IMG/VR virus record: IMGVR_UViG_3300034073_001700
Location: 1-64,000 of that record
From: a virus
DNA: 64,000 bases
Direction: 5' to 3' (one strand)
A model generated the notes under the pieces. It had not been told where the DNA came from. It saw only the letters and a list, made by a program, of their open reading frames with translations, and did not search any database. Positions 42,845 to 63,226 of this stretch are shown in pieces. Positions within the stretch are counted from its first letter, which is position 1. Each line of letters begins with the position of its first letter. A program made the translations under genes and the position numbers.

Positions 42845-43025
42845 ACTAAATGAAAATAATACTATTACTTGTGTGGGCATTGTTCTTGTTGTCAATATTC
42901 CATGCCCCGCTAAAGTGATCTACCTCACAAATCTCAAAATATGAGAAAATGTCAAAAATAACTTGACAAACCCAAAAATAAATGAAATAATAAATACCAT
43001 AACCGAAAACAAAGGAGAAATACAA

Positions 43026-43193
43026 ATGGCAGTATCAACAGCAACTTACAAGGTAGGCGACCTCTACACCTCACAGAAGTCAAAGGTGACAGGCACAATT
43101 ACCGAAATCAAGCCAAACAAAGACGGAAGTTCCGTTCGTGTAAAACTTGATGTCAATGGTAGCCCACGCTGGACTACTTGGACAGCAAAGTAA
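43026..43193 (+). CDS. 55-aa SH3/KOW-like protein (start re-called to MAVST)
   Basis: SD AAAGGAG before ATG 43026; YKVGDLY...VTG.I..I. Confidence 0.7.
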   Translation: MAVSTATYKVGDLYTSQKSKVTGTITEIKPNKDGSSVRVKLDVNGSPRWTTWTAK

Positions 43194-43209
43194 TTCTCAA
43201 TACGAGAAA

Positions 43210-43238
43210 TGTCCTGAGCATGACAACTAAAACTGCTC
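43210..43238 (+). ncRNA. H-type pseudoknot element copy 1
   Basis: TGTC-CTGAGCA-T-GACA-ACTAAAAC-TGCTC. Confidence 0.6.
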
Positions 43239-43297
43239 AACTTGATTTTCTAACATTTTTGTGTTAGACTAAATACAACCCAAACGAAAGGATAACA

Positions 43298-43720
43298 ATG
43301 GCAAGAAATGGAAAAGCCATAAATGTCAAGATTGCTACAACCAAAGTAATCAAGGCACTTGAAACTAAGTTAGCCGAAATCAACAAGAATAAGGCTAATC
43401 AAAAAGTCAATGAGGAGAAACACTCAAAGGCTATGGAGAAGTATAATAAGGAAGTCGCTAAACTTGCGGTATCCGCTATCGCTAAGGCAACTGACTTGTC
43501 TGCTCACACTCGCTATAATGGTGAAATCGCAGTATCTTTCAACTTACCTAAAGATACTATTGAACTACCTGCTGAACCTGAAAAGGATTTTGATACCTAC
43601 CACGATTGGCAGTATCGTGAGATGATAGAGGAAATTGAGAACGCAATTCGTATTCTCAAGATGACAGATGAGGAAGTAGTTTCTACTTCTACTTACAACG
43701 CTATCGCAAGATACCTATAA
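43298..43720 (+). CDS. Hypothetical coiled-coil protein
   Basis: SD GAAAGGA, own promoter. Confidence 0.75.
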   Translation: MARNGKAINVKIATTKVIKALETKLAEINKNKANQKVNEEKHSKAMEKYNKEVAKLAVSAIAKATDLSAHTRYNGEIAVSFNLPKDTIELPAEPEKDFDTYHDWQYREMIEEIENAIRILKMTDEEVVSTSTYNAIARYL

Positions 43721-43802
43721 TTGGTTGGGGGAGGGTATTTGACTCCCCCTTCTAAAAATGCTAAAATTAAATAAATAACCCAATAAACAGAAAGGCAAGT
43801 AA

Positions 43803-43970
43803 ATGACACTCGGAGGATACACTTATCAAGTAGGAGATTTATTCACTACTTCTAAAACAGGTGTTACAGGAAGAATAAACTCTTTCACACCTATTCGTCA
43901 AAATGTAACTCGTGTAGGTCTTACACTTAGCAACGGCGCAAAGCGTTTTGCTATGGTAAAAACTTACTAA
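43803..43970 (+). CDS. 55-aa SH3/KOW-like protein, paralog of 43026..43193, not in ORF track
   Basis: MTLGGYTYQVGDLFTTSKTGVTGRI...; SD AGAAAGG. Confidence 0.7.
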   Translation: MTLGGYTYQVGDLFTTSKTGVTGRINSFTPIRQNVTRVGLTLSNGAKRFAMVKTY

Positions 43971-44123
43971 TACAATTGTGGCGGGTTTCGGGTGTGTAAT
44001 CGGAATTCCCCCCGCCACAACTAAAAACTAAATAGAATTGGGTGATCGTCTGCGTTCACGGCAAACTGCGACATAATTCATGGTTGTGTTGATCTTTTTG
44101 CGAAAGTCCCTTGACACTCCCTA

Positions 44124-44165
44124 ACGCCTGAGTATGGAGGAAATCCTTTAGCGTCTAAACTGCTC
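44124..44165 (+). ncRNA. H-type pseudoknot element copy 2 (with inserted hairpin)
   Basis: ACGC-CTGAGTA-(16 nt)-GCGT-CTAAAC-TGCTC. Confidence 0.55.
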
Positions 44166-44289
44166 CCCAAAAATCCCCTAGGGGGTGTGATAATAAACAC
44201 AGTCCAATATGTGAGATTATTTACGTACTCGACTTGCTTTCCCCCCTAAAAAATGTTATGATTAGATTATCTAAAGAAAGGATAACCCA

Positions 44290-44553
44290 ATGATAGCAAC
44301 CGCTATTGCTTTACAAGAAACCAGCAAAGAGGCAGTATATGATGAAACCTCAATGATGATGGCTTCTGCTTTATTTCATGGCAGACACGAGATGGATGAT
44401 GAACAATTCCAAAGAGCAATTTTTATGTATTCCGCTCACCTCTCTGCTGTTGCCACAACTCTCGCTACAAATGTCCTCTTGACAAAAGAGCAGGTAGATG
44501 AGATGATTAATACCATACAAGAAATGGAAACAATGGGAAAGGACATTGAATAA
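44290..44553 (+). CDS. Hypothetical protein
   Basis: SD AAGAAAGGA, promoter TTGCTT-17-TATGAT. Confidence 0.7.
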   Translation: MIATAIALQETSKEAVYDETSMMMASALFHGRHEMDDEQFQRAIFMYSAHLSAVATTLATNVLLTKEQVDEMINTIQEMETMGKDIE

Positions 44554-44999
44554 TGGAAATGACTGAAACATTAGTGCCTGAGCACTATAATCCAAATCAA
44601 TTGGTAACCTATAAGGTTATCAATAATGGTGAAACCACATATCCAACCAGCAAGGTTGTTGATATCGAATGGAAATTAGAAAGTGCACGGGCTGCAGATA
44701 GACAACTATCATCTCTAAGACTTAGTGTCAGCAACTTAGAAGACATGCTGCCCAACTGGTTAGAAAATGAACCAGATACTGGCGAGATTGTCTCTGACAT
44801 CTGTCAACTATTCGGATTCAATCCTACCAAGGATGTTGAGTTTGAGGCCACGGTAACAATTAGCGGAATCATAACTGTTCCACTTGCAGAACTAAATGAT
44901 TTTGATATTGATAGTGTTGATTTAAATATCGATGCAAATTCTTATTCACATGATGTCGATATTCAGAATGTAGAAGTCGACACAATCACAACGCTATAA
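44553..44999 (+). CDS. Hypothetical acidic protein
   Basis: TAATG coupling with upstream gene. Confidence 0.7.
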   Translation: MEMTETLVPEHYNPNQLVTYKVINNGETTYPTSKVVDIEWKLESARAADRQLSSLRLSVSNLEDMLPNWLENEPDTGEIVSDICQLFGFNPTKDVEFEATVTISGIITVPLAELNDFDIDSVDLNIDANSYSHDVDIQNVEVDTITTL

Positions 45000-45077
45000 T
45001 AAATTTGCGGGGTTCATGAAAGGCCCCGCAATGTACGCAGCATCCCTCTTTCATCCTTTCTTATAGGGATCTGCAAG

Positions 45078-45106
45078 GGACCTGAGCACGTCCACGTAAA
45101 CTGCTC
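45078..45106 (+). ncRNA. H-type pseudoknot element copy 3
   Basis: GGAC-CTGAGCA-C-GTCC-ACGTAAAC-TGCTC. Confidence 0.6.
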
Positions 45107-45177
45107 CAATCAATCTCCTAGCAGGTCGATCTTGAAAAGTCAAATTTATGGCGTGTCGGTGCATTAAGTAATAGGAT

Positions 45178-45206
45178 TTGCTTTTGTCGCTGGTTTATGC
45201 TAAGAT
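45178..45206 (+). promoter_or_regulatory. Promoter with TGTCGC-N10-TAAGAT (PafBC-like)
   Basis: One mismatch to TGTCRG; same spacing. Confidence 0.5.
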
Positions 45207-45233
45207 TAGTTTATCTACAGAAAGGAAATAAAA

Positions 45234-46244
45234 ATGGCTCACGAATTAGAAACGCAAAATGGCGTTGCTTCTTTCGCTTCTTTTAGAGAACCTGCTTGGC
45301 ATGGTCTTGGCACAGTTTTCACAGAAGAAAAAAATACAGCAGAAATGCTTGCTGCTGCTAATCTAAACAATTGGAATGTTAGATTGGTTGATGTTGAAAT
45401 TCCAAATACTCTTACATCAGATAAGAATTATTCTTATGTTGTAAGAACTAACCCTACCGATAAATCTCAGACCGATGTTCTCGGTGTTGTCGGTGAGCGT
45501 TATCATGTTCTACAAAATGAGGATTTATTCTCTTTTGGTGACACTATGCTTGACGGCGGTGGCCGTTGGGAAACTGCTGGCTCCATTCGTGGTGGTCGTG
45601 TAGTATTCGGCTCTCTTGCTCTTGAGCGTGAGACAATTCTTGACCCTAATGGTGTTGCGGATAAGGTAAAGACTTATCTTCTAATCAATACCTCTCATGA
45701 TGGGTCTATCGCAATTCAGGCTTCAATCACGCCCGTTCGTGTTGTATGCGCTAACACTCTCAATCTTGCGTTAGGTCGTAAGGGTAAAGGCCCTAAGCAA
45801 TCTTTCAAGATTAGACACACACAGACCGCTAACGGCAAAGTTCAAATTGCTCGTGAGGCTCTTGGTCTTGCTAATACTTACATGGACGAATTCGATAAAA
45901 TGGCTAAGGCTATGATTGAAAAAGAAATCACAGCACAGCAATTTAACGACATCGTTCTCGCTGCTTATCCTAAGCCTGACAGCGACAAGAAAATCGCTAT
46001 CACAAAATGGACTAACAAGATTGATGTTATCAATGACATCTACACAGGCCAATTTAATGGCATGATTGCTAACACCGCTTGGGGTGCGTTCAATGCGCTA
46101 ACCGAAAGATTGGATTGGCATCGTTCTGCTCGTGGTGGTAATACTGAGGCAATGCTCGCTGCTGCTTCTGGTTTTGACCCATCAATTACAGCAGAAAAAA
46201 ATCGTTTGCTAAAAGTTGTAAAAGATGTTTTAGCCGTAGCGTAA
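45234..46244 (+). CDS. DUF932 / phage-plasmid-like protein (TIGR03299-like)
   Basis: REPAWHGLG, ETAGS..GG, LINTSHDGS, TPVRVVCANTL, TAWGAFNALTE. Confidence 0.88.
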   Translation: MAHELETQNGVASFASFREPAWHGLGTVFTEEKNTAEMLAAANLNNWNVRLVDVEIPNTLTSDKNYSYVVRTNPTDKSQTDVLGVVGERYHVLQNEDLFSFGDTMLDGGGRWETAGSIRGGRVVFGSLALERETILDPNGVADKVKTYLLINTSHDGSIAIQASITPVRVVCANTLNLALGRKGKGPKQSFKIRHTQTANGKVQIAREALGLANTYMDEFDKMAKAMIEKEITAQQFNDIVLAAYPKPDSDKKIAITKWTNKIDVINDIYTGQFNGMIANTAWGAFNALTERLDWHRSARGGNTEAMLAAASGFDPSITAEKNRLLKVVKDVLAVA

Positions 46245-46255
46245 TAAAATACGCA

Positions 46256-46282
46256 ACTCCTGAGCATGAGTATAAACTGCTC
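46256..46282 (+). ncRNA. H-type pseudoknot element copy 4
   Basis: ACTC-CTGAGCA-T-GAGT-ATAAAC-TGCTC followed by T-run. Confidence 0.6.
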
Positions 46283-46633
46283 TATTTTTTATTGATCAAA
46301 AAATCGCCTAGGCAAACGGACAAATCGGACATAACATTTTTGATTTATTTTTATTACGTACGACTTGATTTTTTTGCTGGATTGTGGGATAATTAAATAT
46401 ACCCAATGAAAGGAAAATATGTTAGGCTATAAAATAACAGACATAGTAGATATGCAGATCTCTATTAATGAGGCTACTAAATATATACCCGCCGATGACC
46501 CTGAAACCAAGCGGGATCTATACAAAGCCTTTGACTTCTTACAAGGATTAATAGTAGAGGGCCACATTCAATAGTTGACATTCCCCTACATTTTTGCTAA
46601 AATTTAATTACGAACCCAATAGAAAGGCCCACG

Positions 46634-50128: not shown

Positions 50129-50569
50129 ATGAACAAACCATTTAGCCCTACCCTATATGCCATAAATGATGATGCCAAGGTCTTGGTCATTGACTATCTA
50201 CAAGCGAATGGATTTTTGGCAAAGGTAAATCCAGATGACTATGGCATTGATCTGTTAGCCAAACATATTGAAACTAACAATAGGTATGAATTTGAGGTAG
50301 AGGTTAAGCATAACTGGAAGGGTGAAAGGTTTCAGTATCCAACCCTACATTTTCCAGGTAGAAAACAAAAGTTTATTAAGAATTCTCCACATACAGTATT
50401 CTTTATCTTAAATCACGAAAGAACTCATGCATATTGGGTAGATGGAACAACCCTATCTACTTGTCCCATAGTTACTAAAAATACAATCTATACCAAGAAT
50501 GAGCAGTTTATCGAGGTATCCATAAACAAATGCAAACTTATAGATTTGAGTAAAAATCTAACACTTTAA
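50129..50569 (+). CDS. PD-(D/E)XK nuclease-like protein
   Basis: YGIDL...FEVEVK motif. Confidence 0.6.
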   Translation: MNKPFSPTLYAINDDAKVLVIDYLQANGFLAKVNPDDYGIDLLAKHIETNNRYEFEVEVKHNWKGERFQYPTLHFPGRKQKFIKNSPHTVFFILNHERTHAYWVDGTTLSTCPIVTKNTIYTKNEQFIEVSINKCKLIDLSKNLTL

Positions 50570-58576: not shown

Positions 58577-58650
58577 GGAGCAGTAGCCAAGTTGGTCAAG
58601 GCCCCGAACTCATAATTCGGTTATCGTAGGTTCGAGTCCTACCTGCTCTA
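58577..58650 (+). tRNA. tRNA with CAT anticodon (elongator Met or Ile2)
   Basis: Cloverleaf; CCGAA-CTCATAA-TTCGG; GTTCGA T-loop. Confidence 0.88.
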
Positions 58651-58670
58651 CAGTGATACAATAGAATAAT

Positions 58671-58743
58671 TGATCTGTAGTTCAGTTGGTAGAACACTCG
58701 ACTGTTAATCGAGATGTCGCAGGATCGAGACCTGCCAGATCAG
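58671..58743 (+). tRNA. tRNA-Asn(GTT)
   Basis: CTCGA-CTGTTAA-TCGAG; atypical T-loop GATCGA. Confidence 0.88.
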
Positions 58744-58747
58744 CGAA

Positions 58748-58821
58748 GGTCCGTTAGTTCAGTTGGTTAGAACGCTACCCTGTCACGGTAGAGGTCGTGA
58801 GTTCAAGTCTCATACGGATCG
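58748..58821 (+). tRNA. tRNA-Asp(GTC)
   Basis: CTACC-CTGTCAC-GGTAG; GTTCAA T-loop. Confidence 0.9.
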
Positions 58822-58823
58822 CA

Positions 58824-58896
58824 GAGAAGGTAGGTGCTGTATGTGTGCCAGGGAAAAGGGAAACACATGTATAGCAAGTTGCAACCCTACCTTCTC
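58824..58896 (+). ncRNA. tRNA-sized structured element within tRNA cluster
   Basis: GAGAAGGTAGG/CCTACCTTCTC outer stem plus inner TGCTGTATGTGT/ACACATGTATAGCA stem. Confidence 0.45.
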
Positions 58897-58904
58897 CCTA
58901 TTTT

Positions 58905-58976
58905 GGCACTATCGTCTATCGGCTAGGACATCGCCCTTTCACGGCGGAAAGACGGGTTCGATTCCCGTTAGTGCTA
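58905..58976 (+). tRNA. tRNA-Glu(TTC)
   Basis: TCGCC-CTTTCAC-GGCGG; GTTCGA T-loop. Confidence 0.9.
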
Positions 58977-63154: not shown

Positions 63155-63226
63155 GCCTCCTTAACTCAGGGGTAGAGTACCCGCCTTGTAAGCGGGTTGT
63201 CGTAGGTTCAAATCCTACAGGAGGCT
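63155..63226 (+). tRNA. tRNA-Thr(TGT)
   Basis: CCCGC-CTTGTAA-GCGGG; GTTCAA T-loop; acceptor GCCTCCT/AGGAGGC. Confidence 0.9.

Follow-up and report, generated by a model that had tools for sequence, protein, structure and literature searches.

An apparently undescribed H-type RNA pseudoknot family of about 27 nt in phages and mobile elements

Background

The preQ1-I aptamer is among the smallest natural H-type pseudoknots (~34 nt) and combines a short first stem (P1), a first loop (L1) of 2-3 nt and marginal stability with an A-rich third loop (L3) that lies in the P1 groove, a 3' tail that completes the second stem (P2) and conserved bases at the helical junction. The frameshift knot of luteoviruses such as beet western yellows virus (BWYV) measures ~28 nt and has an L1 of two bases starting with C, a single junction base that is mostly U and a long A-rich loop; knots of this type sit 5-8 nt downstream of the A-site codon. 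Repetitive extragenic palindromic (REP) and bacterial interspersed mosaic elements (BIME), as well as the RNase III sites of phage T7, are multi-copy transcribed structures, located between genes or past their ends, that delimit and protect the upstream message. The subject of this work is a short pseudoknot found in four copies between positions 43210 and 46282 of a viral DNA, IMG/VR record IMGVR_UViG_3300034073_001700. The stretch analyzed (64,000 nucleotides, positions 1 to 64,000, referred to as the window) is the first 64 kb of this complete 120,142-bp record, which has direct terminal repeats and 37% G+C.

The element is, with near certainty, a cis-acting RNA of ~27 nt that folds as a classical H-type pseudoknot with the consensus 5'-NNNC-CU-GAGYA-H-GNNN-(N)2-AAAC-UGCUC-A. 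P1 has 4 bp (NNNC/GNNN) and is free in sequence except for its invariant closing C-G pair, L1 is CU, and P2 has 5 bp (GAGYA/UGCUC) and is often lengthened by a pair between U8 and the A at +1, directly after the knot. The A-rich L3 ends in an invariant AAAC and is usually 6 nt long, reaching 17 nt in one instance. A single base forms the junction; among 191 instances it is U (147), A (22) or C (22), and never G. The invariant bases gather at the P1/P2 junction (C6-G15, C7, U8, A13-U32 and AAAC).

With the preQ1-I aptamer the knot shares the short P1, the 2-nt L1, the 1-nt junction, the A-rich L3 and a P2 completed by the 3' tail. It differs from this riboswitch (RF00522) in its conserved bases, in the lack of any match of the RF00522 covariance model at the motif, in occurring in several copies per genome and in its context, as no queuosine gene was found among 60 downstream open reading frames (ORFs) and the knot instead follows the stop codons of varied genes. 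In comparison with the luteovirus knots, the codon upstream of the motif is a stop, we saw no overlapping frame, P1 is weak and rich in AU, and the carriers are DNA phages and bacterial mobile elements. REP and BIME elements and the T7 sites are long stable hairpins that belong to one host lineage or enzyme, whereas the present motif is a 27-nt knot with an invariant junction that occurs in many phyla. The arrays of hammerhead ribozymes in prophages described by Perreault et al. (2011, PMC3088659) are present in multiple copies that flank single genes or short gene blocks of changing identity, including ardA; they are spread widely across the phylogeny, and their likely role is to cut or delimit polycistronic RNA. 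Several copies next to changing phage genes, anti-restriction genes among them, and a wide spread are features that our motif has in common with these arrays, but it reads CUGAGYA where the hammerhead core, according to the same paper, needs CUGANGA (Y in place of G8), and stems II and III are absent.

The first-pass annotation of the window, made from the sequence, had not recognized the element as a named family, and this is borne out by Rfam 15. At the gathering threshold the window and ~200 kb of related loci returned only tRNAs and one borderline transfer-messenger RNA (tmRNA), and scans by E-value found nothing at the motif (E<=10 in positions 42900-46500 of the window; E<=1 in 27 kb of other motif-bearing loci); there was likewise no match at the motif to the Rfam self-cleaving ribozymes (hammerhead, twister, twister-sister, pistol, hatchet and HDV-like). 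A SAM-II-like match at 43722-43774 was rejected, with 22.6 bits against a gathering score of 44; it is a terminator-like hairpin away from the motif. Literature searches with motif strings and with terms for phage pseudoknots, ribozymes and stop codons found no description of the motif, and there were 0 matches in the part searched of a catalogue of 8,495 candidate viral RNAs (PMC10690425), which may still hold it. We describe a real, widespread and structurally proven family of RNA pseudoknots of phages and mobile elements that is apparently undescribed. If so, it is among the shortest widely conserved structured RNAs; both of its helices covary, some eight junction bases are invariant, and instances number in the hundreds, in phages, prophages and conjugative-type elements of many phyla.

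Results

Covariation of the two stems

The pattern CTGAGYA-N(1-30)-AAACTGCTC has exactly four matches in the window, all on the plus strand (43214-43238, 44128-44165, 45082-45106 and 46260-46282), and is matched in 0 of 100 dinucleotide-preserving shuffles of the window. With the four preceding P1 bases these matches are the copies at 43210, 44124, 45078 and 46256 of the first-pass annotation, and P1 differs yet pairs in each of them, as had been noted there (TGTC/GACA, ACGC/GCGT, GGAC/GTCC and ACTC/GAGT). An alignment of 134 rows (A1) was made from 131 distinct viral instances and three window copies, the number of distinct viral sequences being 121 by a narrower key and 131 by a wider key. 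Of the three free P1 positions in A1, one is paired in 114 rows and two are paired in all 134, with 4-6 pair types each, while the position just outside P1 lacks pairing in 90 of 129 rows. The observed P1 covariation score was reached by 0 of 500 column shuffles, and sliding the partner by 1-3 columns lowered pairing to only 26-45%.

The search pattern behind A1 fixed P2, and P2 was therefore tested separately. A covariance model with P2 as its sole helix (R1), used to search 50 whole viral records and 20 regions, recovers P2 variants such as AAGCA/UGCUU, GGGCA/UGCCC, GAACA/UGUUC, GAGUA/UACUC, GGUCA/UGACC, AGUCA/UGACU, AGGCA/UGCCU, UAGCA/UGCUA and AGACA/UGUCU. Because a model alignment is biased toward its own structure, the test was repeated with a script descriptor that demands P1, CCU, G and AAAC and nothing of P2, applied to 894 kb that comprise the loci and the genome. 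It returned 214 distinct matches, 181 with a canonical and 33 with a non-canonical P2; among the latter, 26 keep all five pairs, two keep four and five keep 0-1, the chance level. A block-shuffled control gave 14 matches, none with five P2 pairs. From the 171 fixed-length matches, 150 (all 26 non-canonical and the first 124 of 145 canonical) were placed in a gap-free alignment of 27 columns, where 99.7% of the P2 cells are paired though this pairing was not demanded and two-sided changes occur at all five P2 pairs (in 6, 9, 4, 2 and 1 sequences); P1 pairing in this alignment is 100% by construction. Compensatory changes are thus present in both P1 and P2, and the H-type pseudoknot first proposed from the four copies stands, including the pairing of the GAGYA loop with the 3' TGCTC, which does not vary in the window but covaries outside it.

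By nearest-neighbor rules both helices are weak (mean -2.05 kcal/mol for P1 alone and -3.14 kcal/mol for P2 alone). A second subtype was found in nine instances, with the 3' strand AAAAGGCUCA, P2 shifted by one base (UGAGC/GCUCA), A13 opposite G and one compensatory case (UAAGC/GCUUA). Its pairing shows that U8 is able to pair with the base after the knot, and this +1 base is A in nine of nine instances of the second subtype and in 61-71% of the main type. The second-subtype sites are L251:4069-4100, L246:1554-1585, L253:3561-3592, L258:4040-4071 and L258:4236-4267 (all minus strand), L255:1609-1640, L255:1959-1990 and L254:4438-4469 (plus strand), and one in L169. At 46 of 238 instances P1 is preceded, at a distance of 0-2 nt, by an accessory hairpin (P0), compared with a mean of 18.6 (maximum 28) in shuffles and 24 when the anchor was moved 20 nt upstream, and the stop codon is often inside this hairpin.

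RNA or DNA

Among 129 distinct sequences, 28 have a U-G wobble at one P2 pair, which would read A-C on the opposite strand. Copies in a single genome differ in how far apart the GAGCA and UGCUC arms lie (11 to 26 nt). At 92 of 160 instances an ORF on the same strand and of 60 amino acids (aa) or more stops no more than 40 nt upstream, against 12 of 160 in a mirror test. Because two interleaved helices covary, with a U-G pair, variable arm spacing and an orientation tied to genes, RNA is favored over a protein-binding DNA site, as the first-pass annotation had argued, and a protein site on duplex DNA is excluded for practical purposes. The broader idea of an element acting at the DNA level, either as an operator or as a folded single-stranded site for a nuclease, recombinase or primase, could appeal to the inverted repeat formed by GAGCA/TGCTC, to the promoter-like boxes that adjoin some copies and to the single-stranded stages of the many carriers that are mobile elements. 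It would have to accommodate the interleaved covarying helices, the frequent wobble, the changing spacer of the repeat arms, the strictly sense orientation and a placement fixed relative to stop codons, and we consider it very improbable.

Copies in the phage genome

Copy 1 (43210-43238, plus strand) scores 43.5 bits with covariance model R2 and 39.3 bits with R1. Its P1 strands are 43210-43213 (TGTC) and 43222-43225 (GACA), L1 is 43214-43215 (CT), the P2 strands are 43216-43220 (GAGCA) and 43234-43238 (TGCTC), the junction base is 43221 and L3 is 43226-43233 (ACTAAAAC). The upstream ORF ends in a TAA (43191-43193), 16 nt ahead of this copy, and the P0 hairpin of copy 1 (43194-43208, plus strand; TTCTC-aatac-GAGAA) ends 1 nt before P1; hairpins of other sequence occupy this position in related contigs. 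In copy 2 (44124-44165, plus strand; 26.5 bits) P1 is formed by 44124-44127 (ACGC) and 44151-44154 (GCGT), L1 is 44128-44129, P2 is formed by 44130-44134 (GAGTA, with a U-G wobble) and 44161-44165, and L3 is 44155-44160. The junction and insert span 44135-44150, between the 5' strand of P2 and the 3' strand of P1, and the covariance model still matches and treats the insert as a loop insertion of 16 nt, in agreement with the first-pass statement that this copy tolerates an insert. In the ortholog of copy 2 in a related contig (L244) the insert is kept and P1 has undergone a compensatory change from ACGC/GCGT to ACAC/GUGU.

Copy 3 (45078-45106, plus strand; 35.1 bits) has the P1 GGAC/GTCC, a junction C and the L3 ACGTAAAC, and near-identical copies of it are found in two related contigs (L013 and L076). 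Copy 4 (46256-46282, plus strand; 44.9 bits), with the P1 ACTC/GAGT and the L3 ATAAAC, lies 11 nt past the stop of a DUF932 gene (45234-46244), whose protein matches PF06067 and phrog_1221. Its P0 hairpin (46239-46254, plus strand; GCGTA-ataaaa-TACGC) ends 1 nt before P1 and holds the DUF932 stop codon (46242-46244); relatives have stems of the GAAATT.../...AATTTC or GCGATTGC.../...GCAATCGC type at this position.

A covariance-model search of the whole genome found two further copies outside the window, both on the minus strand, at 65291-65317 (P1 CGTC/GACG) and at ~76158-76183. The latter reads CCTGGGCATG...AAAACTGCCC. The P2 variant GGGCA/UGCCC is present in a copy of this genome. All other genome matches to the covariance models reach 15 bits or less, among them a partial match at 50498-50523 of the window (minus strand, 15 bits) that covers the 3' half only and was not counted as a copy. 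A crude ORF map places a plus-strand gene block at ~37.6-63.1 kb with minus-strand blocks on either side, and by this map all six genome copies are intergenic and in the sense orientation, as had been proposed for the four in the window. Eleven metatranscriptome runs contain 5-8% of the sampled words, and the contigs of four runs that were aligned at a likeness of at least 88% come from relatives. Some of these contigs span copy 1, although such contigs cannot show RNA ends, and cover drops after 46167, which may merely reflect intergenic divergence.

Distribution

Scanning viral contigs with the exact pattern gave at least 131 loci with at least 140 matches. Fifty viral records of 22.6 to 183 kb that were searched whole contain 1 to 8 matches each at E<=0.05, and 22 of them contain one. 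A scan of prokaryotic genomes, with one genome per species, gave at least 119 loci with at least 122 matches. By our own arithmetic ~200 chance matches to the pattern are expected in this collection of ~596 Gb, so the raw prokaryotic counts mean little. All three free P1 pairs are present in 66 of the 122 prokaryotic matches listed, against ~5% by chance, and 84 of the 122 matches listed have the commonest single loop length, against one in nine by chance; by these two excesses most of the prokaryotic matches are real. According to the record titles, well-formed matches come from Saccharibacteria, Aminicenantes, Lachnospiraceae, Eubacteriales, Anaerolineae, Calothrix, Lacticaseibacillus, Ligilactobacillus, Clostridium, Alistipes, Polynucleobacter, Omnitrophota, Atribacterota, Spirochaetota and others. 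Matches in Pseudomonas and in some GC-rich metagenome-assembled genomes (MAGs) have no P1 pairing and look like chance matches within genes. The carriers are phages, prophages and other mobile elements of many bacterial phyla, with 1 to 8 copies per genome. Two Methanobrevibacter MAG records (L317 and L372) also hold well-formed copies (P1 TGAC/GTCA) followed by ATTTTTTATT and, in L317, by an ArdC-N/IrrE-like gene; these represent either an archaeal mobile element or contamination of the bins.

Placement relative to genes

The spacer between the stop codon and P1 was measured at 102 instances with long flanks. It is 5 nt in 21 of them, 6 nt in 8, 7 nt in 5, 8 nt in 9, 9 nt in 4, 10 nt in 2 and 11 nt in 5; it is never shorter than 5 nt and is 34 nt or less in 79. 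The same loci have 1,229 motif-free gene ends, at which 83 ordinary terminator-like hairpins were found; their median start is at 22 nt, and 13% of them start less than 5 nt from the stop or overlap it. Distances to the next start codon are broad, with a median of ~70-120 nt, a cluster at 20-36 nt and a tail beyond 250 nt, and in 18 of 238 instances a tRNA gene starts 4-14 nt after the knot.

The genes on either side vary. Among 101 distinct upstream ORFs, Pfam assigns DUF932 to 15, HSP20 to six and DUF7249 to three, and ArdA, DUF2958, DUF3768, DUF4192, YjcQ, YkuD, DUF669 and a minor capsid protein to one each; most have no family. Downstream (60 ORFs) we found SNase (4), scaffold (3) and PcfJ (2) and single cases of ArdC-N/IrrE, SSB, ThyX, Fur, DUF932, ferritin, CHAP and GP88. 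DUF932 was considered as an obligate partner and rejected, being present in 6 of 30 motif-bearing records and in 4 of the 18 that are at least 90% complete. Carriers often put the knot next to early or anti-restriction genes (DUF932, ArdA, ArdC-N, DUF2958 and DUF3768), and its function would therefore bear on the first transcripts that a mobile element makes in a new host.

Three contexts are of particular note. In ten bacterial loci (17 by a looser test) the knot overlaps the end of an ORF of 20 aa with a strong Shine-Dalgarno box and the consensus MKRYxVPRxxHCxxGCxxxS, the last codons of which form the 5' strand of P1 and the UGA stop of which is U8-G9-A10 of the knot. These loci are L267:943-1002 (plus strand), L276:109-168 (plus strand), L285:1023-1082 (minus strand), L304, L332, L337, L344, L350, L358 and L361; the records are titled Aminicenantes, Thermodesulfobacteriota, Spirochaetota, Eubacteriales and other phyla. 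The peptides match no Pfam or NCBIfam family, and several of the loci have a clear canonical terminator after the knot. In a group of phages with adjacent HSP20 and SNase genes (L146, L149, L162, L193, L154, L166 and L187, at about 1830-2030 in each locus), a TATAAT box lies past the HSP20 stop and is followed by one or two conserved hairpins (e.g. CUGCACCCC...GGGGAGUCGCAG) and then by the knot, which is the last element of this leader and lies 21-23 nt before the SNase start codon, with a Shine-Dalgarno box in between. The whole may be a larger structured leader, and it matches no Rfam family. The third context is that of window copies 2 and 3, each separated from the stop codon by a GC-rich hairpin. 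Hairpins that are rich in GC and have no clear T-run were seen at 43722-43760, 43978-44018 and 45005-45030, past the genes that end at 43720, 43970 and 44999; the first of them gives the sub-threshold SAM-II-like match noted above.

Flanking sequence, terminators and promoters

The 10 nt that follow the knot contain 9.5% G and 38% T, compared with ~20% and ~29% at 567 motif-free gene ends, and this U-rich, G-poor bias ends after ~10 nt. Of 238 instances, 57 have a TTTT run at +1 to +10. Internal control segments have one in 9 and 8 of 238, and the matched control, the 567 motif-free gene ends, in 3.9-5.6% of the segments. In each of the 57 the start of the first TTTT is at +1 to +7; beyond +7 T-runs are ~14-fold rarer per position, with at most two instances per position at most positions. 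A separate terminator made of a hairpin plus a T-run follows within 70 nt of the knot in only 10 of 238 instances. In the window, such a run is directly adjacent to copy 4, where the U-rich tract TATTTTTTATT was read from the sequence at 46283-46293 (plus strand), and to none of copies 1-3. A consensus scan found no canonical plus-strand terminator at the four window sites, and at none of the four is a U-tract directly preceded by a GC-rich hairpin of at least 5 pairs. Pairing of an A-tract with the U-tract across the knot was considered, and the two show no association (Fisher p = 0.29).

The first-pass annotation had also placed each copy just upstream of the next promoter. This is borne out in part: a candidate promoter (TTGATT-17-GATAAT, TG-extended, plus strand) at 46365-46393, between copy 4 and the next gene (46419), passes the consensus scan as a consensus match only, with 9 of 12 positions. 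After copy 1, boxes that may be read as a promoter (TTGATT-17-TAGACT, with TGn before the second box) lie at 43242-43270 on the plus strand; these start 3 nt after the knot and are below the threshold of the scan, but the same boxes recur in related contigs, following the orthologous motif.

Like intrinsic terminators, the knot is found at gene ends in the sense orientation, with an A-rich 5' flank and, in the 57 instances above, a U-rich and G-poor tract of hybrid length, and in this genome it stands in the place of a terminator ahead of promoter-like boxes. Unlike them it is a weak knot of two helices rather than a GC-rich hairpin, and most copies have no clear U-tract; it also lies far closer to the stop than the ordinary terminators of the same loci, and many copies need read-through. 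Our literature search found no description of a pseudoknot-type terminator.

Discussion

Given the fold, conservation, orientation and placement of the knot, we infer, as a tentative preference only, that the element would punctuate transcripts at the 3' boundary of a cistron by acting as a terminator or pause site and, by protecting the RNA, as a 3' cap. The knot would lie at the minimum distance behind the stop codon that keeps a terminating ribosome from unwinding it; the mRNA entry channel reaches roughly 5 nt. It would fold once RNA polymerase has synthesized the UGCUC strand, and the knot together with the U-rich, G-poor stretch, which is about as long as the RNA-DNA hybrid, would pause or terminate a fraction of the polymerases. 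Where polymerase reads through into a tRNA or the next gene, the knot would remain the 3'-terminal structure of the upstream message after cleavage downstream. RNase P cleaves at the 5' side of tRNAs, and at the instances with a tRNA 4-14 nt after the knot its cut would therefore place the knot close to the 3' terminus of the RNA upstream. The U-rich tract within a few bases of the knot, the lack of canonical terminators at the window sites and the promoter-like boxes that follow in this genome speak for such punctuation. The roles suggested in the first-pass annotation (a 3' cap, a terminator substitute, a ribozyme or a ligand- or protein-binding motif) are narrowed by these data, which do not settle the choice among them.

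Several observations weigh against such punctuation. About two thirds of the instances have no U-rich flank (at least five T in 9 nt in 86 of 238). A T-rich flank does not mark the end of an operon either, as it shows no link to how far away the next gene lies (medians 64 vs 120 nt, p = 0.42) and 37% of the T-rich cases have a start codon within 40 nt. Read-through would be needed at the 18 instances with a tRNA directly downstream and at the roughly one third of instances with a start codon within 40 nt of the knot. Helices this weak would make a poor brute-force block to a nuclease or polymerase, and a passive cap would not need eight or more invariant junction bases. The three special contexts need no terminator or cap: in the ten bacterial loci the knot overlaps the stop of the 20-aa ORF and, in several, a strong canonical terminator follows, in the HSP20-SNase phages it belongs to a 5' leader behind a TATAAT box, and copies 2 and 3 already have a GC-rich hairpin between stop and knot.

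A different role, which we consider unlikely, is that of an RNA-processing site, either a tiny self-cleaving ribozyme or a fold recognized by a universal endonuclease such as RNase P, that would cut transcripts into single-gene messages. The knot shares the genomic habit of the prophage hammerheads (PMC3088659), flanking DUF932, HSP20, ArdA and other genes, with ArdC-N, PcfJ, SSB and SNase genes downstream, and its presence in so many phyla speaks for a function that does not depend on the host. It also agrees with a rule of thumb for "biochemically sophisticated" RNAs given in PMC5737381, namely a pseudoknot, many invariant unpaired bases and occurrence in many phyla, although the same paper holds a downstream U-tract or terminator to be at odds with self-cleavage and a U-tract lies directly 3' of the knot at some sites. 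Weak helices would suit a fold made for chemistry rather than stability; on the other side, no known ribozyme was found in the ~200 kb of motif-bearing loci. The order U8|G9-C36 followed by A(+1) resembles the -1/+1/discriminator layout of RNase P substrates, but the knot has no equivalent of a T-loop, and a tRNA-like CCA end was rejected, as ACCA follows the knot in 13 of 191 instances and is no commoner there than ACTT (13) or ATTT (13). To our knowledge natural self-cleaving RNAs are about twice the size of this 27-nt knot or larger. Alternatively, the marginal knot could be locked by a small molecule, an ion or a universal protein and thereby act, together with the U-tract, as a conditional terminator or, at sites with a ribosome-binding site 10-15 nt further on, as a translational element. 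Its preQ1-I-like size and architecture, the invariant bases at the P1/P2 junction, the weak helices, the tolerance of a 16-nt insert at the junction, the U-tract directly after the knot in a quarter of the cases and the leader of the HSP20-SNase phages would all fit an aptamer. We find this rather improbable, in view of the lack of a consistent downstream gene class, the multiple copies per genome that are tied to the upstream stop and not to the downstream start, a junction base that varies and so offers no fixed specificity determinant, and the fact that no co-occurring protein was found, DUF932 being present in so few of the near-complete motif-bearing genomes. There is perhaps a small chance that the element represents a new minimal RNA class, being the smallest natural self-cleaving ribozyme or a ~27-nt switch gated by a ligand or factor; if this were true, phages and mobile elements, possibly including archaeal ones, would cut or gate transcripts behind stop codons without host factors.

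The sharp lower limit and mode of the spacer at 5 nt could instead point to the ribosome. A stop codon in the A site would put the knot at the mRNA entry channel, where it would modulate termination, recycling or post-termination scanning or guard the stop against 3'-to-5' decay and so prevent non-stop messages. Recoding pseudoknots have a similar spacer geometry, the loop layout is like that of the luteovirus knots, the ordinary terminators of the same loci are placed differently, and P0 often contains the stop codon. We nevertheless think such a role distinctly unlikely: spacers of more than 10 nt make up about half, and some, as at window copies 2 and 3, are longer than 100 nt; the 20-aa ORF loci have the stop inside the knot and hence a different geometry, and weak helices would scarcely hinder a ribosome. 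A -1 frameshift signal was rejected, as slippery heptamers (X XXY YYZ) lie 5-9 nt upstream in 8 of 238 instances, against 6 of 238 in a control segment shifted 20 nt further upstream, and no conserved frame runs through the knot. A comparably low probability is given to an element that serves the downstream RNA, in which the knot would become a protective 5' end after a cut in the A-rich spacer and the U-rich flank would act as a ribosome standby site or enhancer for the next gene. About a quarter of the measured instances have the next start 20-36 nt past the knot with a Shine-Dalgarno box at 10-15 nt, and in Lacticaseibacillus prophages and one viral contig the knot lies between minor-capsid-type and scaffold genes, where higher downstream expression is expected; the HSP20-SNase leader also fits. 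Against this stand the broad distances to the next start, up to 250 nt or more, compared with the tight upstream spacing, and the promoter-like boxes between the knot and the next gene in this genome.

A module of 27 nt able to end, cut, protect or gate RNA independently of host-specific factors would be a compact and portable part for synthetic biology, and the tight 5-nt placement makes the interplay of terminating ribosome, RNA polymerase and nascent fold directly testable.

Related phages and other features

This phage has only distant relatives among cultured phages; the nearest are the 130-kb Streptomyces phages of the BE cluster, with 47% identity in the portal and 52% in the DUF932 protein. 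One of these, Jay2Jay, contains no copy of the motif (best match 11 bits), and megablast and blastn searches of the region and of a Lacticaseibacillus locus against a phage collection gave no match. The palindromes CCCCTAGGGG (44175-44184) and GCCTAGGC (46306-46313) lie 10 and 24 nt after copies 2 and 4, respectively; CCTAGG is otherwise depleted in the window (3 sites vs 9.3 expected), and in Jay2Jay CCCCTAGG likewise lies just past the DUF932 gene.

Most early-region proteins of the phage have no PHROG family. The phage encodes a ribonucleotide reductase, two 2OG-Fe(II) oxygenase-like proteins and an S-adenosylmethionine decarboxylase-like protein. Five tRNA genes are present in the window, four of them clustered at 58577-58976 and one, at 63155-63226, located at the end of the plus-strand gene block.

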